Origin: a virus
UHGV virus genome: UHGV-1351772
Direction: 5' to 3' (one strand)
DNA: 64,000 nt
Position numbers and translations under genes: made by a program. The stretch's first letter is position 1; each line of letters opens with the position of its first letter. This document shows positions 828 to 55,740 of the stretch, in pieces. Below the pieces are notes generated by a model. That model was not told where the DNA came from and searched no databases. It saw only the letters and a program-made list of their open reading frames with translations.

Positions 828-3122
828 TTATTTACCAGCAGCAGCTTTGCCTTCGCCAGCAACGTTACCTGCTACACCACCTTCGGTTTGTTTCTGACCG
901 TTCTGTTCAACAGAAACATTGTAAGCCAGTTTTTCTTCAACCAGTTTGGTGATGCCTTTAACCCAGATCAGACCAGTGATCGGGCAGTGGCAGATGTGCG
1001 CGTTACGTGGCTGTACGGCCAGCTCTTTAGAGGTAGAACCGTTACGCTGAATGTTGATGTTGGTAACCATGATCGGAGACCAGAAGTGGTTACCCCAGTT
1101 CAGCACGTTGTAGGAACCATCGTCCGCAGTCGGAACTTTCAGGAACCATTGCAGACGACGAGTCCAGGAACCGTCAGCTGCGTTGTAGATACGCCAGCGG
1201 TCATCGTTGGTGGTGATCACTTCGTATTCGTAGCGATCGCCCAGCAGACGTTGGTCGCCCTGTACCAGCAGCAGCATAGATGCAGTCGGTTCGTCAGTTG
1301 CAATAACAACTTTCGGCAGAATGTCCGGATCGGCAGTGTACAGACGCAGCGCAGGAATGAAGCGAGATTCCTGGATAGCCTGAGTTACCTGATTACCGAT
1401 ACGCTGTACCAGGCCCTGACGAGCGTTGATCAGTGCATCTTTGGTATCCAGGGACTGTACAACTTCATCAACGTTGTAGTCAGACTCTTTGAACCACGGA
1501 GCAACCCAGTGACGTCCCAGACCACGAATGGCCGGTTTGTCCCACGGAGTGATCATGCTTGCAGCAGCGTTACGTACCGCTTCGGTGTAAGACAGCGTCT
1601 GAGTGATAGCCAGCTGTTCGTTACGGATGTTAACTGCGGAAATCAGGTCGTCCAGACGTTCGGTATCGTCGTATTCAACTCCAACCGGAGACTTGGTCAG
1701 GATCGGAGAACCGTATTGCAGTTTGTAGTTTTCTTGTTCCCAGATTGGGTCAAGCAGCAGACCCTGGGTACGACGGTTTTCGTTGGTACGAGTACCATCG
1801 AAGCGCCAGCCCATCAGTTCAAGTTTCAGACCGTCCAGGATAACTTTGCCGGTACCAGATTTGGTATCAACTTTGTTACCGGTAGCGTCGTACAGACCTT
1901 CGATTTCCAGTTTGTGACCAGCGATGTCAACTTTACCACCGAACTGACCGGTAGTGAACAGAGACATGTTGATGGTGATCACATAACGCAGGGTGTAGGA
2001 GTTCTGACCAAGCGCTTGCAGTGCCGGAATAGCCGCACCAGTCCAGTCGGTAGTTTTCGCGTTCAGAGAGAACGCAGTACGACGGAATTGCAGTACCAGC
2101 TCACGGCCATCACCTTCAGCAGGACGCTGGAAGGTTGCGAACTGCATGTCACGAACGTGCAGTTTGATGAATTTACCTGCTTTTGCTTCTTCGGTCGGTT
2201 TACGTACGGAAATCAGCAGGCTGCCCAGAGCACAACCCGGTGCGATTTCATCAGTTTCGTCGTAACCTTCCTGAACGATACCCGGATGCGCAGACAGCTG
2301 GAACAGGTTCAGAGTGTCTTTAGCAAAGCTCAGGTAGTTAGTCGGGTACGGAGGTACACGACCCAGGCGAACAGATTCGTTCGGTACCAGTTCTTCGCTT
2401 ACGAAGTATTCAGCGTTTTCACCGGTTTCCATTACGTAAGGAACGATGTTGATCGCTTCGTCCTGAAGAACGGTGTGGTCAGTCAGCGCTTCGTGCAGGT
2501 TACGACGATGATCTTCAACAACGTCTTTGGTCAGTAACGCGTGCATGACACCACGAGAAACGGTGGTCACTTTGGTACGTACGGTAATACCAACGTCATT
2601 GGTGTCAACGGTGATGGTCGGGAACAGAGTCTCAGCGAAACGAGACTGAGTTTCCAGAGCACGTACGTTCAGCGTCCAGGTCAGACCCAGGTTTTTGTCG
2701 TAATCTTTGTTGGTGTAGTATTCCTGAGCAACAACCATACGCTCTTTGCCCCAGTCGCCGTTACCAGCTTGGGAACCAGGAATCGCAACGTCCAGGTTAA
2801 AACGGCTATGGAATTCTGGCTTAGCGTATTCTTGCGCTACTTTTTCTTGCAGGTCCATACCGTGACCAGCAGCACCCAGAATCATTGCAGAAGCAACTTC
2901 CGCAGCGTGGGACATTTTCTTGCCGCCAGCAAACGCGTTTGCGTAGTGCTGTGCAGCATCGTCACGCAGGGTACCAAAAACTTTCGTGTTGCTACGTACA
3001 GACTCACCAGCAACGATGGTGTTCCACATTTCGCCAGCACTGTTGTTACTAATGACGCTTTGTACCAGCGAGTTACCAGCTTGTACGAGTTTCTCCAGAT
3101 TAGAGATTCGGGTATCTTTCAT
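828..3122 (-). CDS. major virion structural protein, putative (major capsid or tail sheath)
   Basis: 764-aa ORF with strongly biased, highly-expressed-like codon usage; natural-looking composition; own terminator; size typical of jumbo-phage capsid/sheath proteins; product is inference. Confidence 0.55.
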   Translation of the reverse strand: MKDTRISNLEKLVQAGNSLVQSVISNNSAGEMWNTIVAGESVRSNTKVFGTLRDDAAQHYANAFAGGKKMSHAAEVASAMILGAAGHGMDLQEKVAQEYAKPEFHSRFNLDVAIPGSQAGNGDWGKERMVVAQEYYTNKDYDKNLGLTWTLNVRALETQSRFAETLFPTITVDTNDVGITVRTKVTTVSRGVMHALLTKDVVEDHRRNLHEALTDHTVLQDEAINIVPYVMETGENAEYFVSEELVPNESVRLGRVPPYPTNYLSFAKDTLNLFQLSAHPGIVQEGYDETDEIAPGCALGSLLISVRKPTEEAKAGKFIKLHVRDMQFATFQRPAEGDGRELVLQFRRTAFSLNAKTTDWTGAAIPALQALGQNSYTLRYVITINMSLFTTGQFGGKVDIAGHKLEIEGLYDATGNKVDTKSGTGKVILDGLKLELMGWRFDGTRTNENRRTQGLLLDPIWEQENYKLQYGSPILTKSPVGVEYDDTERLDDLISAVNIRNEQLAITQTLSYTEAVRNAAASMITPWDKPAIRGLGRHWVAPWFKESDYNVDEVVQSLDTKDALINARQGLVQRIGNQVTQAIQESRFIPALRLYTADPDILPKVVIATDEPTASMLLLVQGDQRLLGDRYEYEVITTNDDRWRIYNAADGSWTRRLQWFLKVPTADDGSYNVLNWGNHFWSPIMVTNINIQRNGSTSKELAVQPRNAHICHCPITGLIWVKGITKLVEEKLAYNVSVEQNGQKQTEGGVAGNVAGEGKAAAGK

Positions 3123-13133: not shown

Positions 13134-13466
13134 CTATAACAGATAAGGTATACCTTCAAAGATAATCTCGTCGTTAGCGAAGCCAACAGACGCTTCCTCA
13201 CCCCCAGAGGTGGTTGCCCAAATCTCTGCCGCAAAACGCTGATTGTTAATCAACAGCCCACGGTTGTTTTCGAACAACACTATCAAGACCAACCTGACGC
13301 TTTTATCTTGATGTAAACGGCGTATAAAGGCGTGCTTTACAGAGGAAGGATACCAGGTGAAGCGTGCTATTTTCCCTTTCGCAACTCTACCTAAAAAGAG
13401 CTTTTCTAAGGTTACAAACTCAGTGCCCATCTCTTTTCCAAATCTGATAATGCCAACGTGGGACAT
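13134..13466 (-). CDS. hypothetical small protein (start uncertain)
   Basis: 110-aa ORF overlapping 3-prime end of DHFR gene; internal Met at about 13430 would remove most of the overlap. Confidence 0.3.
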   Translation of the reverse strand: MSHVGIIRFGKEMGTEFVTLEKLFLGRVAKGKIARFTWYPSSVKHAFIRRLHQDKSVRLVLIVLFENNRGLLINNQRFAAEIWATTSGGEEASVGFANDEIIFEGIPYLL

Positions 13467-13956
13467 CGCTATCCGGTTTGGAAGCGTGCGTTAAGTTATA
13501 AACCAGTCTAAACTTGTTACGATCGATTTCAGGAAAGAACGCATCTGCACCATCGACTTTAACTTCTACGCGTGACAAGTAAATCTTATCCACATAAGGT
13601 AACGCCTGATGGTAAATTTCTGCGCCGCCGATAATAAAGATTTCCTTAGGATAACCCTTTTTCTCAACCTCGGTTTTGAGGAATTCAATAATCGAACCCA
13701 TTTCACCCTTAAGGTTAAGCACCCCATCGATATCGGGCACACCACCAGGTCTTCTCGTTAACACGACATGGTGGCGATTTGGTAGGGGTTTATACCCTAA
13801 CGATTCCCATGTCTTGCTTCCCATCACAATAACTTTACCTGACGTAAGAGCCTTAAAATTCTTTAAGTCATCGGGAATACGCCACGGCAGTTTATTGTCT
13901 TTCCCAATTTCGTTATTCAACCCAGCAGCAGCTATCATCGAAACTGTAATTGTCAT
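13420..13956 (-). CDS. folA: dihydrofolate reductase
   Basis: Classic DHFR sequence: MTITVSMIAAAGLNNEIGKDNKLPWRIPDDLKNF...VIVMGSKTWESLG...PLPNRHHVVLTR...IFIIGGAEIYHQALPYVDKIYLSRVEV; start moved from ORF-track 14145 to ATG at 13954..13956, which has a GGAG RBS. Confidence 0.85.
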   Translation of the reverse strand: MTITVSMIAAAGLNNEIGKDNKLPWRIPDDLKNFKALTSGKVIVMGSKTWESLGYKPLPNRHHVVLTRRPGGVPDIDGVLNLKGEMGSIIEFLKTEVEKKGYPKEIFIIGGAEIYHQALPYVDKIYLSRVEVKVDGADAFFPEIDRNKFRLVYNLTHASKPDSDVPRWHYQIWKRDGH

Positions 13957-14258
13957 TTCTTTATCTCCAGTGAGCCTCTTAAATGGCGTATAAAATCTTT
14001 TCGGGTATACCGACTCGTTTTGTACTGATCGGCTAAATGGTAAACGGTAACGTACCGCCCTTTGGCTTCCATATGCAAATGCGTTATATTGCCATCGTTC
14101 GTAGGGAGTGGTCTGATCAGAGGAATCATCAAATCCCCATTCCAACCAGGTTCATTAAGTCTCGGTATCAGTAATCGAATGTCTAGCCGTTTTACGCAGT
14201 ACACCACATTACTTTCCGGCAACTTAACAACACATATCGCATCGGCTTTGAGTTTCAT
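13953..14258 (-). CDS. hypothetical protein
   Basis: 101-aa ORF; stop overlaps DHFR start (coupled ATGA-type junction). Confidence 0.5.
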   Translation of the reverse strand: MKLKADAICVVKLPESNVVYCVKRLDIRLLIPRLNEPGWNGDLMIPLIRPLPTNDGNITHLHMEAKGRYVTVYHLADQYKTSRYTRKDFIRHLRGSLEIKK

Positions 14259-14812: not shown

Positions 14813-14870
14813 TTCTATTCTCCTAAAGGTAATAAACTGGTCGTTAAAAGATTACAATGTAATCTCACTA

Positions 14871-14886
14871 AGATAATATCTATCTG
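14871..14886. promoter_or_regulatory. palindromic promoter-like motif AGATAATATCTATCTG with AT-rich box
   Basis: Consensus copy in intergenic region between minus-strand genes. Confidence 0.45.
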
Positions 14887-14919
14887 TGATTATTTTTAAT
14901 AGAAAAAAAAAAGAAAAGG

Positions 14920-14952
14920 GAGAACCACCCCATTACAAGGTGGTTCTCTTAC
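14920..14952. terminator. rho-independent terminator
   Basis: gagaaccacc-ccattacaa-ggtggttctc hairpin flanked by A-run and T-run; just after stop of 14967..16229. Confidence 0.6.
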
Positions 14953-14966
14953 TAAACAATCAGGGA

Positions 14967-16229
14967 TTATTTAGATTTTTCGTAAGCAGCGATACCTGCG
15001 GAGATATAGCCGTTCAGACCGCTGGCCAGGTGTTTCTGGGTAGAAGCAATAATTTTCTCATTAAAAGAGAGACTACGTTGAACACTGGTAATGTGGCGAC
15101 GTAACTTACGCACATTGTCGGTCAGTTCTGGTTTTTCATCGATCTTGACTTTATCGATTTCTTTCAACAGATTACCGATTTTATCTTCAAAGGACTTACG
15201 TGCGCTTTCGACTTTACGATAAGCCTGAACGTTTTTCTCGATCTGTTTACCCACTTCGTTGAAGAAGGCATTGATCTTAGCCAGTTCGCCAACAGACGGA
15301 GTTTTCACGCTGGTTTCAACGCTTTTCTCAGCTTCGACAAAGGTATAACTAAAGCCACCTTCTTCATCGTACTCGACTTTCGCAGAGACGTTGCCGAGAT
15401 GATATTCGATAACTTCTTTTTTGGCGATCGCTTCGAAAACTTTCTTCAGTTCTCCATCAAAAGAAGCATCGCCTTTAAGGGCTTTATCAACCATGCCAGC
15501 AGCATCAGTGGCTAAAGAAGGGACTTCATTACTATAGAAATTAGAAACTCTGTGCAGATCGTCTTTCAGTGACGGGATATCGTTGCCAACGAACTTGCCA
15601 TCGATAGACAGAGACTTGATAAAGCCACCAGAGATTTCATCTTTCTTCTGTTTGCCCAGCTTACGAATAACTTCATCGTATTTCTTAGCACGCGCCTGGA
15701 TAGATTTACCCTGGTTGTGGAATTTCAGCCAGCGATCTTTGATCTTACGACCCTGTTCTTTCAGCCAATCCCAGATACGACCAATGAAGGCTTTAATGTC
15801 TTCCCACAGGGATTCACGAGCAACCTGACGACGGTTACGAGAACCGTAGGATTCGTGAGCAACAGAAGAACGGTGTTCGAAGTTCCAACGAGAACGGATA
15901 GATTCCTGAGCAACGTCCAGCGCAGTCGCAGCGTCGTCCGGCATATCTTCTTCGGCGTCCATCGGTTCTTCACCGTCTTCGCCAGCACCTTCACCGTCAG
16001 CAGCAGCCTGAGCTTCATCCAGAACATCCAGCTGAGCGTCAGTTTCGTCGCCGTCTTCTGCCAGCAGTTCAGCGTCAGCGTCCAGAGCTTCGATCGGTTT
16101 GGTGTCATGCTCGATATCGGCCAGAGTGCCTTCTACGGATTCTGCTGGCAGTTCGATGCCGTCTGGAACTACAGTAGAAGTAGACTCCATAGACTCACGA
16201 GCAATTTTGTTTTTGTAGAAATTCGCCAT
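14967..16229 (-). CDS. acidic protein, tandem paralog A (possible scaffold or internal virion protein)
   Basis: 420 aa; MANFYKNKIARESMEST N-terminus, acidic D/E-rich region, shared LRKLGKQKKDEISGGFI motif and ...NGYISAGIAAYEKSK C-terminus with 16312..17583; biased codon usage; GAGGA RBS. Confidence 0.6.
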   Translation of the reverse strand: MANFYKNKIARESMESTSTVVPDGIELPAESVEGTLADIEHDTKPIEALDADAELLAEDGDETDAQLDVLDEAQAAADGEGAGEDGEEPMDAEEDMPDDAATALDVAQESIRSRWNFEHRSSVAHESYGSRNRRQVARESLWEDIKAFIGRIWDWLKEQGRKIKDRWLKFHNQGKSIQARAKKYDEVIRKLGKQKKDEISGGFIKSLSIDGKFVGNDIPSLKDDLHRVSNFYSNEVPSLATDAAGMVDKALKGDASFDGELKKVFEAIAKKEVIEYHLGNVSAKVEYDEEGGFSYTFVEAEKSVETSVKTPSVGELAKINAFFNEVGKQIEKNVQAYRKVESARKSFEDKIGNLLKEIDKVKIDEKPELTDNVRKLRRHITSVQRSLSFNEKIIASTQKHLASGLNGYISAGIAAYEKSK

Positions 16230-16247
16230 TTTAAGCTTTTCCTCTAA

Positions 16248-16270
16248 GGGGAACGTATTGTTCCCCTGAT
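16248..16270. terminator. terminator hairpin between the tandem paralogs
   Basis: ggggaac-gtatt-gttcccc. Confidence 0.45.
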
Positions 16271-16311
16271 GATTTATTTCAAGAACTGTACGGAACTACG
16301 AATCTAAATGA

Positions 16312-17583
16312 TTATTTAGATTTTTCGTAAGCACCGATACCAGCACCCAGGTAGCCATTCAGACCGCTAATAACGGTGTTAGCAACATAGCTAACTGCGC
16401 GGTTCAGGGTCTGGTAGTTCTTAACAGACCAATCGGCAGCTTGACGTGCGTTACGCAGGCCATCCCACTTGCTATCGTCTTTTTCGTTGTTCAGCGCCTT
16501 AGCAGCATTCTCAGCAGCCTGTTGCAGCTTCACGATTTCAGAATCGTAAGCACGGAAATCTTTCAGTACGGCTTCGAAGCCTTTACCGATCGCTTCCAGA
16601 GCAGAAGCAGCGCCAGCCATTTCAGAAACAGACGGAGTTTTCACGTCTTTATCGTCAGAAGCGTCGCCGGTGCTCATGAATGCGATTGCAGTGAACTTGT
16701 GGCCGCCAGCCAGTTCTTTAGTACCAGCCTGAATGTAAGCGTTGCCCGGCAGTGCCAGCAGTTTAGACGCATCACCTTTTTCAAAGTTCGGCAGAGTGTG
16801 TAGTTTAGAAGCAGCTTTACCAAACAGTTCTACCGGCTGATCACCACGCATTGCCTTGAATGCGTCATCGTCACCTTTGGTAACGGCAGTCACAGCTTCA
16901 CCAGCTTGTTTTTCCAGAGCACCGATGGAACCTTTAGCTTTACCAGCGGTAACTTCTTTCGCAATAGCGATAGAGCCAGCAGCATCGAATTTACCTTCGA
17001 TAGACAGCTTGGTGATAAAGCCACCAGAGATTTCATCTTTCTTCTGTTTGCCCAGCTTACGCAGCATTTCCTGATATTTCTTCGCACGTTTCTGTGCGGT
17101 CTTACCGACGTTGAAATATTTCAGTTTCAGGTCTTTGATCTTCGCAATCACTTCTTTACAGAACTGAATGAAACGATCGTAAAGATCTTTCAGGGTTTCT
17201 TTCCAACCTTCCTGTGCAGCAGCAGTCATACCACGACCACGGCGATAGGATTCGCGAGCCAGTTTAGTACGTTCCAGGCACCAACGACGTGCGATGGATT
17301 CCTGTGCCACTTCGTGCAGGGCAACCGCTTCTTCCGGCATTTCTTCACCGTTAGCAACGGCTTCTTCCGCCTGTTCGATAGCGTCTTCAGTACGCTCGGT
17401 ATCGGCAGCCAGGGTTTCACCGTCGGTTTCCAGCTGATCGAGCTGACCGTCGATAGATGCTACGTCCGCAAGTTGGACGTCCAGGTTCTCTTCTGCCGGT
17501 TCAACGTTGCTGATACCGTCGATTACTTCATCGGCCGCTTCCATCGATTCACGAGCGGCGCGAGTTTTTGCGAAATTTGCCAT
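16312..17583 (-). CDS. acidic protein, tandem paralog B
   Basis: 423 aa; MANFAKTRAARESMEAAD..., same shared motifs and C-terminus ...NGYLGAGIGAYEKSK. Confidence 0.6.
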   Translation of the reverse strand: MANFAKTRAARESMEAADEVIDGISNVEPAEENLDVQLADVASIDGQLDQLETDGETLAADTERTEDAIEQAEEAVANGEEMPEEAVALHEVAQESIARRWCLERTKLARESYRRGRGMTAAAQEGWKETLKDLYDRFIQFCKEVIAKIKDLKLKYFNVGKTAQKRAKKYQEMLRKLGKQKKDEISGGFITKLSIEGKFDAAGSIAIAKEVTAGKAKGSIGALEKQAGEAVTAVTKGDDDAFKAMRGDQPVELFGKAASKLHTLPNFEKGDASKLLALPGNAYIQAGTKELAGGHKFTAIAFMSTGDASDDKDVKTPSVSEMAGAASALEAIGKGFEAVLKDFRAYDSEIVKLQQAAENAAKALNNEKDDSKWDGLRNARQAADWSVKNYQTLNRAVSYVANTVISGLNGYLGAGIGAYEKSK

Positions 17584-17642
17584 TTCGTTTATTTCCTTTG
17601 GTTATATAACCCAATTACACGCCCCTAGAATGAGGGGCCCCC

Positions 17643-18203
17643 TTAGGGACGTGCGATTTTCAAAAACACTGCTAACGACGAGATCATGTCGGACAACCCG
17701 TTCGGGCGCGTCATCCAGCGTGCCAGCAGTTCATGGTCTGCATAAGATAAAAGACGTTTGCTACACTCAACGGATTGGTGAGCAGAGCCCATATTACGTA
17801 CAGTACCTCGGCGACCAAACGCAGCAGCTAATAGACGCGAGCCTAATGCACCCGTCTGTTCAACATTCTTCGTGTTACGAACATCGTTCATATACGACGA
17901 CAGCAAAGTCGACCACTGCCCTAACGTCACATTACGTCGCTTACCATCCAGCAAGAAATCTACACTTTCGTTATAAAACGTATTAAAGGTAAATCCGACC
18001 TGCGGATATTCGTCATATAATACTTGCTGCAAAGAATCAGCAGCCATCAGACGAAAGTACGGTAAAATAACGGCGGCGGCTTCCAGTGTTTTGTGAATAA
18101 CCTCGTCATCGTGTGTGTCGATTGGGTTTTTCGATAAAATCGACATGTAGGATTTAATGCGCTCTACAGCAACATTAAATTCAGGACTATCGTGCTCAAA
18201 CAT
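17643..18203 (-). CDS. hypothetical protein
   Basis: 186-aa ORF. Confidence 0.5.
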   Translation of the reverse strand: MFEHDSPEFNVAVERIKSYMSILSKNPIDTHDDEVIHKTLEAAAVILPYFRLMAADSLQQVLYDEYPQVGFTFNTFYNESVDFLLDGKRRNVTLGQWSTLLSSYMNDVRNTKNVEQTGALGSRLLAAAFGRRGTVRNMGSAHQSVECSKRLLSYADHELLARWMTRPNGLSDMISSLAVFLKIARP

Positions 18204-18220
18204 TCGCCTCTCCTAACGGT

Positions 18221-19156
18221 TTACGCTAAACCGTATTTCTTTTCAAGACGCTCACGCTTGTGCTTGAGTTCCATCAGATGCTTTTCACTGATTTCAATCA
18301 GTTTCTCAATGTAGGCATCACCCTTACCTTCTGCGACTTGCTTTTTGTAAAGTAAGATACGCAGTTCCGCCGCTTTCGCCGCTTCTACACACTCGTCGTA
18401 CTTATCCATCTGCCGTTCAGCGATATTCAAACGTACGCGCAATATCAGCGAGATTGGGAACGGTACACTGCTCATTCCCAGTGGGTCAACGGAGCTCGAA
18501 CCGAACTGTTGCGCCAACTCACCGTAAGTTTCGTCGTTAAAGATCGCTTCAGGAATTTCCGCATAATCCGCTTTCAGTTTATTCAGCGGCGTTGCCAGCA
18601 CACGGACAGCAATGCAGTAAGAAATAGAACGAGTATTGAGGTATTGAAGGTCATTCGGACCGACGCCTTTTACTTCAATATTCGAGCCTTCTACGGCGGC
18701 TATTTCTTCCGCGGTTACGTAGTTAAGTAAGGTGGCACTGTAACCTGTAAAGAAGTCAATCAGGTCAAGCAGTCTGAGCACCGTTAATTTATTAAACGTC
18801 ATTGAAGACGTGACTAACGCTTTACCAATGTCACGCGTAATACATTGGTCTAAGAAAGAACGCAATTGTAGCGTGTTTTCCATCGAGGCAACGATGTATT
18901 CCAGCATCGAAGGATTACGGAGACCTTTGGCTTCCAGACCGGAATTCCGCAGGTATTTAACCAAATCATCCGACATGTCCTGCACCGTTTTCGATTTAAA
19001 CGGCTTGCCTTCTTTCGACGCTACCAGCTCTTGCAGAGACTGGAAACGCGGTAAAAGTTGTTCACCAATCGCATCGCAGTTTGATGAGAGTTGGTTTTTC
19101 AAGTTTGTTGCTTCAAAGCTCGGCAACAACATAGCGAGCATATTCGGGATTGCCAT
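18221..19156 (-). CDS. hypothetical protein
   Basis: 311-aa ORF. Confidence 0.55.
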   Translation of the reverse strand: MAIPNMLAMLLPSFEATNLKNQLSSNCDAIGEQLLPRFQSLQELVASKEGKPFKSKTVQDMSDDLVKYLRNSGLEAKGLRNPSMLEYIVASMENTLQLRSFLDQCITRDIGKALVTSSMTFNKLTVLRLLDLIDFFTGYSATLLNYVTAEEIAAVEGSNIEVKGVGPNDLQYLNTRSISYCIAVRVLATPLNKLKADYAEIPEAIFNDETYGELAQQFGSSSVDPLGMSSVPFPISLILRVRLNIAERQMDKYDECVEAAKAAELRILLYKKQVAEGKGDAYIEKLIEISEKHLMELKHKRERLEKKYGLA

Positions 19157-19166
19157 GCCTTACCCC

Positions 19167-20273
19167 TTAAAGAACTGGCTGAGCGCCAGAGCGATACGCT
19201 TCGATGATTTTATTTACATCGGCGCTACCAGACTTCGATTTACTAAAGTCAGATTTATCGAGTTCCTGAGAGCCGTTCTGACCACGGGTATAAATAGTGA
19301 CGCGATTCCAGGTGGTGTCCACAACAACGTAGTAGACGGTCAAGGTGTCTTTGAACACACGCTGACGGATATTGAAATCGTCAAATTCGCCACCTAGCTG
19401 TGCGGTCAAACCGTCGATGGTGTCTTGAGAAACCACCATAACGGAAGAAGCGTTATTGATAGACGGTGCCAGAGACAGCAAACCAGATAACCAGTTACCG
19501 TTCTTCTTCTCCACCATCTTACGGTAATAACCGGACTTATCGCGATAACGGTTCTTACGATATTCTTCTACCAGGTCGTTACAGAACGCAATGTCTTTTA
19601 CGTAACTCAACGCGCCAACGCGTGCACGCAGCCAACGTTCCCAGAATGTTTTCGTCTGGTCACTGAACGCAATCAGTGTTTCAATTTGTTCGGTCGGTAA
19701 GGATTTCACATCCAAACGTAAACGCATTGGGAGTTCGACTTTATTACCGTCACGTTCGAATGTTACTGAGAACATCTTCCCGTTGGACAACCCTTCTTGA
19801 TCGAAAAGCTGTTTAATCGGATCACCTTTCCCACCACTGACTGAACCTTTTGATTCTTGGGCAACCCGTCGGGAAGATTCACCGACCGCAATGCCGATTT
19901 TATCGTATGACGGTAAACCATAACGGGCAGATTCGCCGACCGCAAGCGCTGCTAAGCGGGAACCGCTGCGGACTGCATTATCGAGCGCACTACGACGTGT
20001 GCTGACCTGATCCAGTGTGCCGATAATATCGACATCCGGTACACCAGTTAACAGGGAGATAGCCGTTAGTTGGTTTCCTGCCAGCAAAATTTGGATTTTC
20101 TCCAGAATTCCCGGAAGGTAATCTAAACCCAGCAGGCTTTGTTCGACTAAGGTAATGTGCTCGTTATAGAGCACTGAGTTAAATTCCTCCATCGACTCCG
20201 CACGTGAACGAAACAGCATGGGAAGTCTGGAGAGGAAAGAGACAACGCTTGTCTCAAACGTTTTTTCTAACAT
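19167..20273 (-). CDS. hypothetical protein
   Basis: 368-aa ORF. Confidence 0.55.
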   Translation of the reverse strand: MLEKTFETSVVSFLSRLPMLFRSRAESMEEFNSVLYNEHITLVEQSLLGLDYLPGILEKIQILLAGNQLTAISLLTGVPDVDIIGTLDQVSTRRSALDNAVRSGSRLAALAVGESARYGLPSYDKIGIAVGESSRRVAQESKGSVSGGKGDPIKQLFDQEGLSNGKMFSVTFERDGNKVELPMRLRLDVKSLPTEQIETLIAFSDQTKTFWERWLRARVGALSYVKDIAFCNDLVEEYRKNRYRDKSGYYRKMVEKKNGNWLSGLLSLAPSINNASSVMVVSQDTIDGLTAQLGGEFDDFNIRQRVFKDTLTVYYVVVDTTWNRVTIYTRGQNGSQELDKSDFSKSKSGSADVNKIIEAYRSGAQPVL

Positions 20274-51801: not shown

Positions 51802-53759
51802 TTACCCCGCCAATTTTAATAATTCCGAGTCAAGCGCGATACCGGCTTCCAAGTCCTCTTCAGTATCCTGGAAGAAACTGTTTATGTTGCTGATATTCTC
51901 GTTATGGAGAATCATGCAACTCGAAACCTCGTCCACATTCGTGCTTGACATAAACCCGTTGTCTGGGCGATAAGCCATGCCCAGTTCCATTTCAATCTGG
52001 TCGATTGCCAATCTACATTGTAACTGGTCGCCATCGAAATCCTGTTTGTCCACTCCATTCCTTTTGGAGCAGGTGTGCAATGACACCCTCCCATGCTTTC
52101 ACATGGGCACAGACTATATCATAACCGTAGGTATTGCTACCCGTAGGTCTCCCCCACTTCGCCGCTAAACTAAGCAGCTACTCTACTCGGTTTTACCCTT
52201 TCGATAGTCGTTGAACGATTTTCATCGCTGCTGGTTATCCATTATCACAACCCTTAGCATTATTGGTTAGCATAGGTTATCTTACGAATTGTTTCTGACT
52301 TTCGCCACCCTGTCGGGATCGTAAGCTTTAGGGGTTTCCAGCAATTCGAGGGATACGCACTAGAGGTTTCCCGTCTAGTGGGCCAGTGTTTAGCATTAGG
52401 TGCTTTGATGACGCGATCAGAAATACGCAGAGAACATTGTGTTACATCTGTCAGTACCGCTGAGATGAACAATGTCTGAATAGAAAGTTGAACCAATGTT
52501 GGGTTACGCAGAACTTCCAACATTAAGCCGAATCCGCCGGGGGATTCTTTAATCAACTCATTAATAATTTCATGTACCAACGGTACATACTGCATTGCCG
52601 CAAATGCAATGATGCGCTCACATTGTCGAGGTGTATAATCACGTCGACCTAACTTGTTCTCAATGTGAACACTCGCCAACGGAACCAACCAACGCCAAGG
52701 CGCAATAACTTTCAACGCATCATGAGGTTCAGAGATAGGAGAGATAGTCACACGTCCGCCCCACGGTACGTGTGTTGACCCGAGTTTTGCCCGATAGAAC
52801 CCAGGTTTACCTTCCATCACTTCCTGACGATGGTCAATATAGAAATACGCAAGCTGTCGATTCGCTTTGATCGCACGACGAATAATAAATCGTGGTTCGA
52901 TACGGCGTGCATTCGTGTACAACAACGCCACATTTTTTACTGCGTCGATAGCGCTGGTATAAACCGGATCGATAAAAATACCTTGTCGGCGCTCCTCCGT
53001 AACGATCAGTTTTGATGAAATAATCGGAAGGTGTCTTGGAAAGAATGAGAACGATTGTTCCTGAAAGAACTCACGCCATTCTAAGCGCACGCGCTCACTC
53101 TCATAACGGTTATTTTTCGTTGGTGGATAAATCTCCTTCCAAGCTTCCGGAGACGTAAGGATATTAAAGACGGTTCGATGGTGGTCGATAAAGTTTCGAA
53201 TTCCCCGTTCGAAGCCATGTTCGCCGAGTATTCTTTTCACCACGCGAGCACGTGTTCCCTCGTCCTTTTCTGGATGGTAGTACGGATCGATTAGCCACAG
53301 CAGTAAATCAGACCCGCGTTCTACCGTCACTTTGTTACGATTAAATTTTTTCAGCTTAGAGCCAAAGAAGGCATTAAAGAGAGACCAAAAACGTGGATTG
53401 ATAAAGTTACCCATCTCATCGGGAGCGCGTAACCAGACATCAGACGTAATCCGATGTTCAGAAACAACATGTCCGCAATGTGGGCAACGAAGCCCAAGAT
53501 TATAACGATGGGTAATAGGTGATTCGCAGGTCAGACTGCAAATAGGAGCCGAGTTGAGTGTTTCATCAACGATTCGGTTTTGGAGTATTTGGTTAATCAT
53601 CTCCGACGCTTCGATGGTATCCATCGTTGCAGCAACGTCATTGATAATAATCGGTGGTTTGTAGCCTTTTTCCTCCGCTTCTTGTATACAGTCACGTAAC
53701 ATCTTGTCGTGACTAATTAGTCGCCCCGAAATCCCGTAATATTCTAGTTTATGTTCCAC
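51802..53759 (-). CDS. multisubunit RNA polymerase beta-prime-like subunit, N-terminal portion with catalytic DFDGD; interrupted by a group I intron (exon 1 about 52446..53759, exon 2 about 51802..52087)
   Basis: Exon 1 has zinc ribbon CSLTCESPITHRYNLGLRCPHCG, GKPGFYRAKLG...GGRVTISP (cf. [20 protein letters not shown]) and LRNPTLVQLSIQ (cf. [12 protein letters not shown]); exon 2 has LHTCSKRNGVDKQDFDGDQL (cf. [18 protein letters not shown]); ORF-track splits this into two ORFs and reads through the intron. Confidence 0.75.
52088..52446 (-). other. group I self-splicing intron (ORF-less), boundaries approximate within about 10 nt
   Basis: On the gene strand, in order: P-like gaattgctggaaac (52331..52350), Q-like aaccagcagcg (52226..52236), R-like gttcaacgactat (52204..52216), S-like gatatagtctg (52110..52120), then a P9-like hairpin cccatg-tgaaag-catggg; P3 (ctgg/ccag) and P7 (gacta/tagtc) pairings possible. 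Confidence 0.7.
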
Positions 53760-53789
53760 GCCGAATCCTCAACAAAAAAAGAGAGGGAA

Positions 53790-53814
53790 GGGACAGGGGG
53801 TTTTCCCCTGTCCC
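53790..53814 (-). terminator. rho-independent terminator after 53844..55691
   Basis: gggacagggg-gtttt-cccctgtccc hairpin followed by T-run on minus strand. Confidence 0.6.
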
Positions 53815-53843
53815 TCAACTACTGCTTACTACTTACCAACTTA

Positions 53844-55691
53844 TTAGAAAGTCGGACGCCAGTCAGTTGCAGCGAAGGACATACCGAAATCGCTACCAAA
53901 TGCGTTAGGACCGCTACCAGACAGCGCGAAGTTCTCATTACCCGTGTTAACAAACACAGAGTGAGTGAGGCTGTTCGCTGCGGTAACACCATTCACCTGG
54001 AAGTTGCAGTTTTCAGTAATGTATTCCACCAGTGCTTTACCAAACAGCGGATTGATCGCCAGGTCAGACGCTTCACCCGTTACCTGCGGCTGTTTGCTAC
54101 CGAACATGGACGCAGCCATTTTCAGCAGGTACAGACGCTGGTCACGCGCATTCAGATAGCGGTGAGAGTAGGACTGTGCACTGATGTAGTCGATCGCATC
54201 GCGTTGGTTATCACCCACTTTAGTCAGAGCGGAAACCAAGTCCATATCCTGGAAGCTGCGTTTCTGGCTGTTGCTGAAATACTGACCAGAGATGGTCGGG
54301 CAACCGGCAATAACAACGTGTTTGCACTCGAAGTTGGTGACATTGCCCAGCAGTGCTTTGAAGCGAGTGCTGAACTTAGTCGCGCCGTTGCTGGCCATGT
54401 TATCCAGGATATTGAACAGGGTGTACAGTGCGTTGGTGTTACCCATCCCGATTTCGCTCAGGAGAGTAGACAGGCCACCGATACCGTTACCTGCACGATG
54501 GTTCACCACCAGGGCCGCAGTCGGGTTAGCGAAGGTGTCCAGGCATTTCTCGATAACTTCACGGTTACCGTCGATTTTGCTCAGGTCAGGTTTTTCGCTG
54601 CCCCATTCTACATACTCCAGAACGCGGGAGAAGCGGCGATCGGTTTTGTTCAGCGACTGCATGAAACGTTCACGCCAGCCACCAATAGTGGCGATTTGTG
54701 CGAACGCGGCCAGTTCAATCAGCTGACGCTCGATAGGTGCCATTGCCCCAGAGGACTGAGAATCCATCAGGGAAACAACCACTTCGGCTTCCAGCTGACG
54801 CAGGTCCTGAGTACCGTTAGTCAGGGTTTGAGGTTTACCTTTATGGCGGAGGTTGATGTAACCAACACCTGCAACGCTCGGATAATTCTGGAGGCGTTCA
54901 GAAGAGAACAGCGTCGGGTTATTATCGTTGTTGCCAGTGCGAGTGTGGTCAACCACAACCATCAGGTCAGCACGTTGTGCAGAACCGTTAACGTCAGTTA
55001 CAGAACCTTCTTCAACTACGCTGACTTGCGCGGTGAAGCGATCAGAACGGGTCATTTTCAGGTAGCCCAGGTAGCCGGAATGACGACCGAAGATACCCAA
55101 TGCAATCTGGCCCATGAGCTGGTTAGCCCATTCTTCGTTCATGGTTTTACCCAGTTCCGGTACGCAGTTCATTACCATGAACTGTACGCTTGGCAGATTG
55201 TGCTGAGTTGCAATCTGGTTAGTGATGTTGTTCATCACACCTTCTTGACTGAACAGCTGCGCCAGGGTGTAGTAGTTTTCTTTACCGTTGATTTCGTAGA
55301 AACGGATGGACTGGCCATGTTCAAAGAACAGGATACCATAGAGCCATTCGTTATGGTTATCGCCGGACGGACCAGCCACGTATGCAGCAGAACCCATTTC
55401 AGAGTTGATGCCGTCAATAACACCCCAACGGAAGTTACGCAGGTATGTGTTCTTCTCCGCCATCTTCTCAATCAGGCTAGTGAACTGAGAAGCAGTGGAC
55501 ACGAAAGACATGTATCCGAAAGCTTTATCGAAAGTAGAGATGTTTTTAGACATCCCACCAAAAGCGTTGGCCGCATTGGTATTATCCACAGTAGCAGCTC
55601 CCGCGCCACCGAAAGACGGAATTGGATCTGCAGCGGAACCAGCAGCACCAGTCACAACGTCGTTTTGATTGTCAATAAACTCTTTAGCCAT
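53844..55691 (-). CDS. abundant 615-aa protein; candidate phage nuclear-shell protein (chimallin), alternatively a virion structural protein
   Basis: Strong codon bias; AAGGA RBS; two tandem consensus promoter motifs upstream; own terminator; size and extended N/C tails are compatible with chimallin, but no direct sequence verification is possible here. Confidence 0.4.
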   Translation of the reverse strand: MAKEFIDNQNDVVTGAAGSAADPIPSFGGAGAATVDNTNAANAFGGMSKNISTFDKAFGYMSFVSTASQFTSLIEKMAEKNTYLRNFRWGVIDGINSEMGSAAYVAGPSGDNHNEWLYGILFFEHGQSIRFYEINGKENYYTLAQLFSQEGVMNNITNQIATQHNLPSVQFMVMNCVPELGKTMNEEWANQLMGQIALGIFGRHSGYLGYLKMTRSDRFTAQVSVVEEGSVTDVNGSAQRADLMVVVDHTRTGNNDNNPTLFSSERLQNYPSVAGVGYINLRHKGKPQTLTNGTQDLRQLEAEVVVSLMDSQSSGAMAPIERQLIELAAFAQIATIGGWRERFMQSLNKTDRRFSRVLEYVEWGSEKPDLSKIDGNREVIEKCLDTFANPTAALVVNHRAGNGIGGLSTLLSEIGMGNTNALYTLFNILDNMASNGATKFSTRFKALLGNVTNFECKHVVIAGCPTISGQYFSNSQKRSFQDMDLVSALTKVGDNQRDAIDYISAQSYSHRYLNARDQRLYLLKMAASMFGSKQPQVTGEASDLAINPLFGKALVEYITENCNFQVNGVTAANSLTHSVFVNTGNENFALSGSGPNAFGSDFGMSFAATDWRPTF

Positions 55692-55740
55692 TTTACTTAA
55701 TCCTTATAAGGTTTAATACAATTGTAGTGTTGGTTCACGT

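Follow-up and report, generated by a model that had tools for sequence, protein, structure and literature searches.

Within a 64,000-nucleotide stretch of the UHGV virus genome UHGV-1351772, referred to here as the window, we examined a tandem gene pair on the minus strand at 14967-17583 and conclude that its products are very probably internal head proteins which are cut by the prohead protease, retained in the head and ejected together with the genome, as orthologs of gp53 and gp54 of the Salmonella phage SPN3US. To judge by sequence, the pair are the PF12699 genes of an SPN3US-like jumbo phage and the counterparts of gp53 and gp54 ("paralog family A"). The clade of this phage is apparently uncultured; its gene family is already known and has been studied experimentally, and identification of the gene pair itself is the recognition of a well-documented pair, which adds little. 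Gene structure, paralogy, family, orthology, synteny, motif conservation, charge dipole, codon bias and predicted fold were established here. The two genes are:

16312-17583, minus strand: gp53-like gene, 423 amino acids, predicted precursor of a PF12699 internal head/ejection protein, ortholog of SPN3US gp53
14967-16229, minus strand: gp54-like gene, 420 amino acids, predicted precursor of a PF12699 internal head/ejection protein, ortholog of SPN3US gp54

Both open reading frames begin at ATG and have a purine-rich ribosome-binding site on their 5′ side. An earlier sequence-only reading had described them as tandem paralogs of about 420 residues with shared termini, and we recovered both frames with the same boundaries as well as a BLASTP match over the full length (33% protein identity, E 9e-53), at an overall DNA identity between the two paralogs of 52%. 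The alignment contains all of the shared elements which that reading had listed, namely the N-terminus MANF.K..ARESME, the internal motif RKLGKQKKDEISGGFI and the C-terminus GLNGY..AGI.AYEKSK. The expression-type codon bias claimed for both genes was also confirmed. An effective number of codons (ENC) of 31.7 for the gp53-like and of 36.8 for the gp54-like gene places them first and third among 53 crude open reading frames of the window (median 50.1 from the 45 frames of at least 150 amino acids) and makes them comparable to the major capsid protein gene in second place (828-3122; ENC 32.4; PHROG 3231, E 8.5e-280). A profile built from 64 homologs matched only the gp53-like and gp54-like proteins among the 53 frames, and thus no further member of the PF12699 family was found in the window.

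Family assignment and orthology carry the internal-head interpretation. Both proteins match Pfam PF12699, "phiKZ-like phage internal head proteins", with 243.6 bits (E 5e-72) for the gp53-like and 187.8 bits (E 5e-55) for the gp54-like protein against a gathering threshold of 27 bits, and the matches cover positions 2-387 of the 387 profile positions. In PHROG, both fall into family 2497, "internal head protein" (E 5e-147 and 1e-120, respectively). The gp53-like protein is 68% identical to SPN3US gp53 and 74% identical to Asesino gp70, and the gp54-like protein is 61% identical to SPN3US gp54, while identity between non-matching paralogs of the window and SPN3US is only 33-37%. The gene order also agrees with SPN3US, with gp49- to gp52-like genes upstream and a dihydrofolate reductase (DHFR) gene downstream of the pair, and RefSeq labels the syntenic genes of SPN3US and Asesino as internal head proteins. 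Among phage records, those of SPN3US-like Salmonella phages and of Erwinia phages come nearest, with ~71-77% DNA identity. Moreover, the gene directly upstream of the pair (17643-18203, minus strand) matches PF25618, the phiKZ vertex-binding protein gp91, with 29.8 bits against a cut-off of 27, so that the block is the counterpart of the inner-capsid region gp91-gp97 of phiKZ.

Predicted structures point in the same direction. AlphaFold2 models of the gp53-like and gp54-like proteins reached mean predicted local distance difference test values of 84 and 83 and predicted template-modelling scores of 0.82 and 0.80, respectively. They consist of propeptide helices and a long three-helix bundle (residues 133-189, 313-358 and 367-414 of the gp54-like protein), with short beta strands in the region of the conserved ISGGFI motif and at the conserved C-terminus, and with an inserted subdomain that combines helices with a small sheet at about residues 218-309 of the gp54-like model. 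A search of the BFVD predicted viral structures gave 98 matches with E <= 1e-3 and template-modelling (TM) scores of 0.4-0.87, which are internal-head or other virion proteins of jumbo phages; all named matches among the 50 listed belong to jumbo phages (201phi2-1, PhiPA3, Psa21, RSF1, RP12, PhiEaH1 and others). Structural homology to internal head proteins is therefore present, and together with PF12699, PHROG 2497 and the syntenic orthology to SPN3US gp53 and gp54 it supports the inner-body half of the earlier proposal, which had been worded as scaffold or internal-head proteins.

Among solved structures, phmmer against PDB sequences found no relative of the pair, including no solved chain of the phiKZ capsid, and Foldseek against the PDB returned nothing significant. 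The score of phiKZ gp86 (PDB 8y6v chain G), an inner-capsid vertex-complex protein which, unlike the window pair, carries no PF12699 annotation, lies within the generic range of helical bundles, and homology to it is not established. The non-significant Foldseek list is dominated by the ClyA family (SmhA/B, MakA/B/E, Hbl, NheA, AhlB), and since injected phiKZ gp93 co-localises with membrane-derived lipid puncta, one may ask whether the mature domains are membrane-active relatives of ClyA-type alpha-pore-forming toxins that help to build a lipid vesicle around the injected genome. We regard this as extremely unlikely: every such match has E >= 0.7 and TM <= 0.25, so that similarity to a solved member of the family in the PDB is not significant, and the mature domains are basic and highly charged.

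Work on the orthologs indicates how the pair may function. SPN3US has just two such paralogs, gp53 and gp54, with similarity to pfam12699 (PMC5694885); according to proteomics and cryo-electron microscopy, no other proteins of its head apart from the capsid protein are as abundant as these two (PMC5694885, PMC7552025). Their first 15 residues are identical and were earlier likened to the capsid-targeting sequences of T4 (PMC5694885). The SPN3US prohead protease gp245, which like phiKZ gp175 is of the S80 type, cuts after A-x-E and thereby removes long N-terminal propeptides (PMC10052503). In the related phage phiKZ, residues 14-84 of gp93 were seen by cryo-electron microscopy bound to the inner face of the capsid, where they bridge hexamers, and its helix-rich C-terminal part is freed by the protease (PMC11297242); gp93 enters the host with the DNA and co-pellets with it (PMC11297242, bioRxiv 2024.03.24.586471, PMC12676376). 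Injection has been observed by microscopy for phiKZ gp93, gp95 and gp97 and for Goslar gp58. By analogy with these orthologs and homologs, processing, copy number, packaging and ejection of the window proteins would follow the same scheme. Each gene would be expressed at the level of the capsid protein as a two-module precursor of ~46 kDa, which would consist of an acidic N-terminal propeptide of 125 or 139 residues with four conserved A-x-E(S) sites and a basic, helix-rich C-terminal domain of ~31 kDa. The precursors would co-assemble under the shell of the prohead, with the N-terminal module docking the protein to the shell, as suggested by homology. The prohead protease would then cut the A-x-E sites and release the C-terminal domain, which would stay with the DNA in the head in hundreds of copies and would be ejected into the host together with the genome.

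The same literature bears on whether the two proteins could instead be classical scaffolding or core proteins, which template the prohead and are then degraded and expelled so that nothing functional is left in the virion. In protease-deficient "mottled" SPN3US capsids, uncleaved gp53 and gp54 build an ordered inner shell of T=1 inside the T=27 shell (PMC7552025), the long N-terminal propeptides are cut into several fragments, the models are made of long helices, and no separate scaffold gene was identified in the neighbourhood of the pair, all of which would suit a scaffold. Nevertheless, we consider such a role very unlikely. The T=1 shell is lost on maturation, but gp53 and gp54 stay in the head as presumed ejection proteins (PMC7552025), and their mature domains of 30-31 kDa are kept in mature heads at more than 600 copies each per head (PMC5694885). 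Furthermore, phiKZ and Goslar inject PF12699 proteins into the host, and several phiKZ PF12699 genes tolerate transposon insertions (PMC12676376) and are individually dispensable, unlike an essential scaffold. The term scaffold is thus only partly apt, because the mature domains of the orthologs remain in the virion.

Several points weigh against the interpretation as ejected internal head proteins. The proteomics and experimental structures on which we draw belong to orthologs and homologs, and cleavage in this phage is deduced from motif conservation only. In addition, that SPN3US gp53 and gp54 are ejected is for the most part an inference too, and phiKZ gp162, also a PF12699 protein, is reported to remain in the head.

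Acidic propeptides, predicted protease sites and basic mature domains

Each of the two proteins divides into an acidic N-terminal and a basic C-terminal part, with the following predicted boundaries:

17209-17583, minus strand: predicted acidic propeptide of the gp53-like protein, residues 1-125, isoelectric point (pI) 4.2, with A-x-E sites ARE-12, AQE-95, ARE-111 and AQE-125
16315-17208, minus strand: predicted mature domain of the gp53-like protein, residues 126-423, 32 kDa, pI 9.3, helix-rich
15813-16229, minus strand: predicted acidic propeptide of the gp54-like protein, residues 1-139, with A-x-E sites ARE-12, AQE-109, AHE-126 and ARE-139
14970-15812, minus strand: predicted mature domain of the gp54-like protein, residues 140-420, pI about 9.2

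The sequence-only reading had called both proteins acidic. This holds for the N-terminal third (pI 4.2 in the gp53-like protein and 4.05 for residues 1-138 of the gp54-like protein) and fails for the basic remainder. The charge dipole is general in the family, as the propeptide was acidic (pI 4.05-4.62) and the mature domain basic (pI 8.88-9.53) in all 64 homologs compared.

The predicted cleavage sites are similarly conserved. A motif of the form [A/S/G]-x-E occupies the four aligned positions in 64, 64, 64 and 58 of the 64 homologs, and the pattern A.ES is over-represented in the propeptides compared with shuffled sequences (P 0.0004 and 0.001) and does not occur in the mature part of either protein. 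In SPN3US, cleavages have been mapped at ARE-12, AQE-95 and AQE-125 of gp53 and at AQE-124 and ARE-137 of gp54, with the new N-termini (E)GWKETLKDLFER and (E)SLWDDIK, respectively (PMC10052503). Sites ARE-12, AQE-95 and AQE-125 of the gp53-like protein coincide with those mapped in SPN3US gp53 (PMC10052503 Table 2), and the sequence which follows AQE-125, GWKETLKDL, matches the SPN3US semi-tryptic peptide. The gp54-like protein reads SLWEDIK directly after ARE-139. Because the A-x-E sites stand at positions mapped in SPN3US, the shared "ARESME" of the earlier reading is, by sequence correspondence, a predicted prohead protease site.

Such sites persist in other known substrates of the protease too. 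The capsid protein of the window keeps AQE-134, followed by YYTNKD, a motif equivalent to ATE-130 of SPN3US, and its gp50-like protein has AQE-140 followed by S, where SPN3US gp50 is cut at ATE-127 (these two positions are not aligned). An A-x-E is also contained in the conserved C-terminus AYE-KSK of both proteins (14970-14981 and 16315-16326), where the A is invariant and the Y nearly invariant in the alignment of 64 homologs; the SPN3US cleavage sites listed in PMC10052503 Table 2 include none at this C-terminal AYE.

RNA elements around the two genes

Besides the coding sequences, the region contains three candidate RNA elements:

16247-16267, minus strand: intergenic stem-loop of 8 bp with a 5-nucleotide loop, which adjoins the ribosome-binding site of the gp54-like gene and is not a canonical terminator
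14901-14948, minus strand: canonical intrinsic terminator after the gp54-like gene, with a G+C-rich stem of 12-13 bp (14920-14948) followed by the T-rich tail CCTTTTCTTTTTTTTTTCT
17584-17690, minus strand: ultra-conserved leader upstream of the gp53-like gene, in which a hairpin at 17617-17654 spans the stop codon of the gp52-like gene

That the genes are separated by a hairpin, as the earlier reading had it, was confirmed by the 8-bp stem-loop. The further claim that each gene has its own terminator stands for the gp54-like gene, which is followed by a stem and a T-run (the 77-nucleotide stretch with this terminator folds at -20.1 kcal/mol, z -2.8), and not for the intergenic hairpin, which has no T-run. 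The intergenic stem is G+C-rich, lies 44 nucleotides past the stop codon of the gp53-like gene and is directly followed by the ribosome-binding site TAGAGGA; the sequence after the stem reads TTAGAGGAAAAG. In 11 sequences (the window and 10 relatives) all cells of the stem alignment were paired, with compensatory changes at four of the eight pairs. The covariation score of 0.603 compares with 0.207 in shuffled alignments, none of 500 of which reached it, and with 0.03-0.17 in slid controls.

We propose that this stem-loop probably serves RNA processing or stability and not intrinsic termination, although non-canonical termination would also fit. Phages of this kind use their own RNA polymerases, whose termination signals are poorly known, and a G+C-rich stem of 8 bp shortly after a stop codon, conserved with compensatory changes, is also what one would see if the hairpin were an intrinsic terminator and each gene a separate transcription unit. 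We consider this rather unlikely. A U-tract follows the stem in none of the 11 sequences, in which it always lies beside TAGAGG with the ribosome-binding site directly after it, and a terminator scan made no call for the hairpin on the coding strand. A stem-loop that stabilises or processes the 5′ end of the gp54-like message explains the fixed position beside the ribosome-binding site at least as well. Moreover, SPN3US heads contain gp53 and gp54 in about equal molar amounts (spectral count per mass 21.0 versus 20.2; PMC5694885), which fits co-transcription.

Averaged over alignment columns, the leader of ~110 nucleotides upstream of the gp53-like gene is 90% identical among 8 phages from at least 4 lineages, compared with ~71-77% for their coding DNA. 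It includes the final codons and the stop codon of the gp52-like gene, folds at -24.7 kcal/mol and is a candidate for a late promoter, or for a leader, of those genes that are expressed most highly in the window. Its core motif occurs a single time, without repeats elsewhere in the window. A scan for sigma-70 promoters gave fewer sites than in shuffled sequences and is thus uninformative. Rfam had no match at the gathering score between 14800 and 17800; a hit of frnS over the terminator (31.6 bits against a threshold of 60) was taken as chance.

Probable gene conversion and allelic variation of the gp54-like protein

Two short tracts in the pair are identical, and one segment of the gp54-like mature domain is highly variable among close relatives:

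17013-17061, minus strand: 49-nucleotide tract encoding RKLGKQKKDEISGGFI, copy in the gp53-like gene, identical to 15617-15665
15617-15665, minus strand: 49-nucleotide tract, copy in the gp54-like gene, identical to 17013-17061, probable gene-conversion tract
15330-15590, minus strand: hypervariable core of the gp54-like mature domain, residues about 214-300, helical hairpin and small beta sheet

All 16 codons of the 49-nucleotide tract are identical in the two genes, for which codon usage alone gives P about 2e-4. The tract in the gp54-like gene is closer to SPN3US gp53 than to SPN3US gp54, and no equivalent identical tract was found in SPN3US or Asesino. In two relatives, L006 and L012, the first 38-47 nucleotides of the gp54-like gene are identical to those of the gp53-like gene, whereas the 5′ end is distinct in the window and the other relatives. 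Short gene-conversion tracts therefore probably link the two paralogs, and their conserved termini would be maintained in part by this exchange.

The variable segment was located by comparison with the close relative L004. The window and L004 are 100% identical in DNA from 18270 to about 15811 (2.4 kb), a stretch that spans the gp52-like gene, the gp53-like gene, the intergenic hairpin and the gp54-like propeptide. Just past the ARE-139 maturation site the identity breaks; it falls to 53-57% at 15400-15570 and recovers toward the 3′ end of the gp54-like gene. Among close relatives, flanking proteins are mostly 97-100% identical (orf110 93.6% in L003), compared with 83% for the gp54-like protein, and at least 10 allele groups were distinguished among 56 gp54-like proteins of the clade. 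The entropy of these allele groups peaks with 0.9-1.35 bits at residues about 215-300, which coincides with the inserted subdomain of the gp54-like model, and is 0.02-0.28 bits in the propeptide. The ratio of nonsynonymous to synonymous changes (dN/dS, Nei-Gojobori) was ~0.07 for the propeptide, compared with ~0.3 for the variable core.

We also considered how this variability arose. In the core, the proportion of synonymous differences (pS) is 0.62, with synonymous sites near saturation, and that of nonsynonymous differences (pN) is 0.33. The dN/dS of ~0.3 at such a pS indicates that the alleles are old and were moved by recombination, not recently diversified, and positive selection was rejected as the cause. 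A diversity-generating retroelement is not indicated, with the limit that no formal template-repeat search was made. Nor is hypervariability a general trait of gp54, since gp54 of cultured Seoulvirus phages is about as conserved as gp53; the window clade shows far more variation in the gp54-like mature domain than in the gp53-like protein.

The variable core bears on what the mature domains do. They may mainly be basic, DNA-associated proteins of the capsid, which organise or spool the 220-240-kb genome as an inner body or aid its ejection, so that entry into the host would be incidental. The basic charge of the mature domain in every homolog compared (pI 8.9-9.5), the co-pelleting of phiKZ gp93 with phage DNA and the combined mass of the two proteins in SPN3US heads, which exceeds 40 MDa, make such a role possible, and we keep it as a tentative alternative. 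However, a role in DNA packing alone offers no obvious reason for the swapping of this protein's central subdomain, in the gp54-like case, as divergent alleles between near-identical genomes, and recent reconstructions of Goslar and phiKZ show no ordered inner body.

For the subdomain itself, a more speculative proposal, which we regard as unlikely to be correct, is that the gp54-like protein is a two-module delivery device, in which a fixed, docking and cleavable propeptide would carry an exchangeable injected cargo whose distal subdomain (residues ~215-300) would be swapped because it meets the host. The internal protein IPI of T4 is an anti-restriction effector. By analogy with T4 IPI and with phiKZ gp184/Tad1, the exchangeable subdomain could be a target of host immunity or a factor in counter-defence or host takeover. 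phiKZ gp184/Tad1 has the same layout as the PF12699 proteins, with an N-terminus that is wedged and a C-terminus that is liberated and injected (PMC12676376).

Close relatives of the clade lie on metagenome contigs of ~222-227 kb, and others in assemblies labelled Salmonella, Shigella, E. coli and Enterobacter; many contigs of ~220-227 kb in assemblies labelled Salmonella, Shigella and E. coli also have these genes, and the proteins of the relatives include P0002, P0063, P0072 and P0075. INPHARED (August 2025) contained no phage record closer than about 77% over any substantial alignment. Two relatives deposited as plasmids are 92% identical in DNA over a 2.9-kb query (16300-19200). NZ_CP173450.1 (L013) and NZ_CP134650.1 are a circular record of 221,873 bp from E. 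coli strain 98232 (urine, Egypt) and a record of 222,441 bp from Enterobacter ludwigii (gull cloaca), respectively. Such plasmid and bacterial-assembly records could stem from a carrier state or pseudolysogeny, or from phage that accompanied the isolates.

Adjacent and distant genes gave some further observations. Between the gp54-like gene and orf183, L003-L006 and L012 carry a gene of 213 amino acids (e.g. L004 7421-8062) for which we found no Pfam or PHROG match. At its site, L007-L010 and the E. coli plasmid record have a frame shrunk to 58-59 amino acids, and the gene is absent from the window (about 14813-14966, junction near 14830); SPN3US has a 251-amino-acid gene and Asesino a 218-amino-acid gene in the same position. 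The downstream DHFR frame (13420-14145, minus strand) was called mechanically with 241 amino acids from a TTG start, whereas relatives call a product of 178 amino acids; translation probably begins further inside the frame, at a start that overlaps the upstream frame of 101 amino acids by a few bases. Finally, a frame of 649 amino acids at 53751-55700 (plus strand) has the fourth-lowest ENC of the window (39.5). It had no PHROG match and no significant Pfam match and may encode a highly expressed protein of unknown family.

Comparison with other phages and implications

The closest parallel to the window pair is SPN3US gp53 and gp54, which share with it the tandem order, the size (425 and 419 amino acids in SPN3US), the flanking genes and PF12699, as well as an N-terminus near-identical across the paralogs, the acidic propeptide and the basic mature domain. 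Furthermore, they have A-x-E at the same positions, including the maturation sites AQE-GWKETLKDL and ARE-SLW(E/D)DIK; their intergenic hairpin is of the same kind, and the leader upstream is near-identical. They differ in that the proteins are only 68% and 61% identical, at a DNA identity of ~75%, and SPN3US has after gp54 a gene that the window lacks, and is without the 49-nucleotide tract shared between the paralogs of the window.

More distant jumbo phages show variations of this organisation. The inner-body proteins of phiKZ (gp92-97, gp162 and gp163) resemble the window pair in PF12699, in a helix-rich predicted fold and in the adjacent gp91-like vertex gene. Their N-terminal region is removed by the prohead protease at S/A/G-x-E, and their copy number in the head is high. 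In gp93, the N-terminal segment sits wedged at the capsid, and release of the C-terminal domain is followed by its injection. However, phiKZ has eight or nine paralogs of ~100-200 copies each, compared with the two genes of the window, whose SPN3US orthologs reach more than 600 each. In Goslar, gp58 and gp53-57 are abundant virion proteins with the PF12699 fold, of which gp58 is present in ~2150 copies and injected. This phage has one dominant and five minor paralogs, whereas the window has two genes of similar codon bias with about equimolar orthologs in SPN3US. The internal proteins IPI, IPII and IPIII of T4 offer a functional analogy, as they enter the head by means of an N-terminal capsid-targeting sequence, which the prohead protease removes, and are ejected with the DNA (PMC5694885); they are unrelated in sequence and fold, are small, and have targeting peptides of ~10-20 residues, compared with propeptides of 125-139 residues in the window.

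In nucleus-forming jumbo phages, PF12699 proteins belong with hundreds to thousands of copies to the most abundant components of the virion, and a structural study of 2026 calls their role "a key unsolved mystery". The propeptide is the most constrained part of the protein (dN/dS about 0.07), which fits a role in capsid docking like that of the phiKZ gp93 N-terminus, and one subdomain of the mature gp54-like protein is a variable cassette shuffled by recombination. This comparative pattern suggests residues to mutate and alleles to swap in order to address the role of the injected domain. If the gp54-like protein should indeed be a two-module delivery device, its natural alleles would provide a direct genetic handle on the function of PF12699 proteins.

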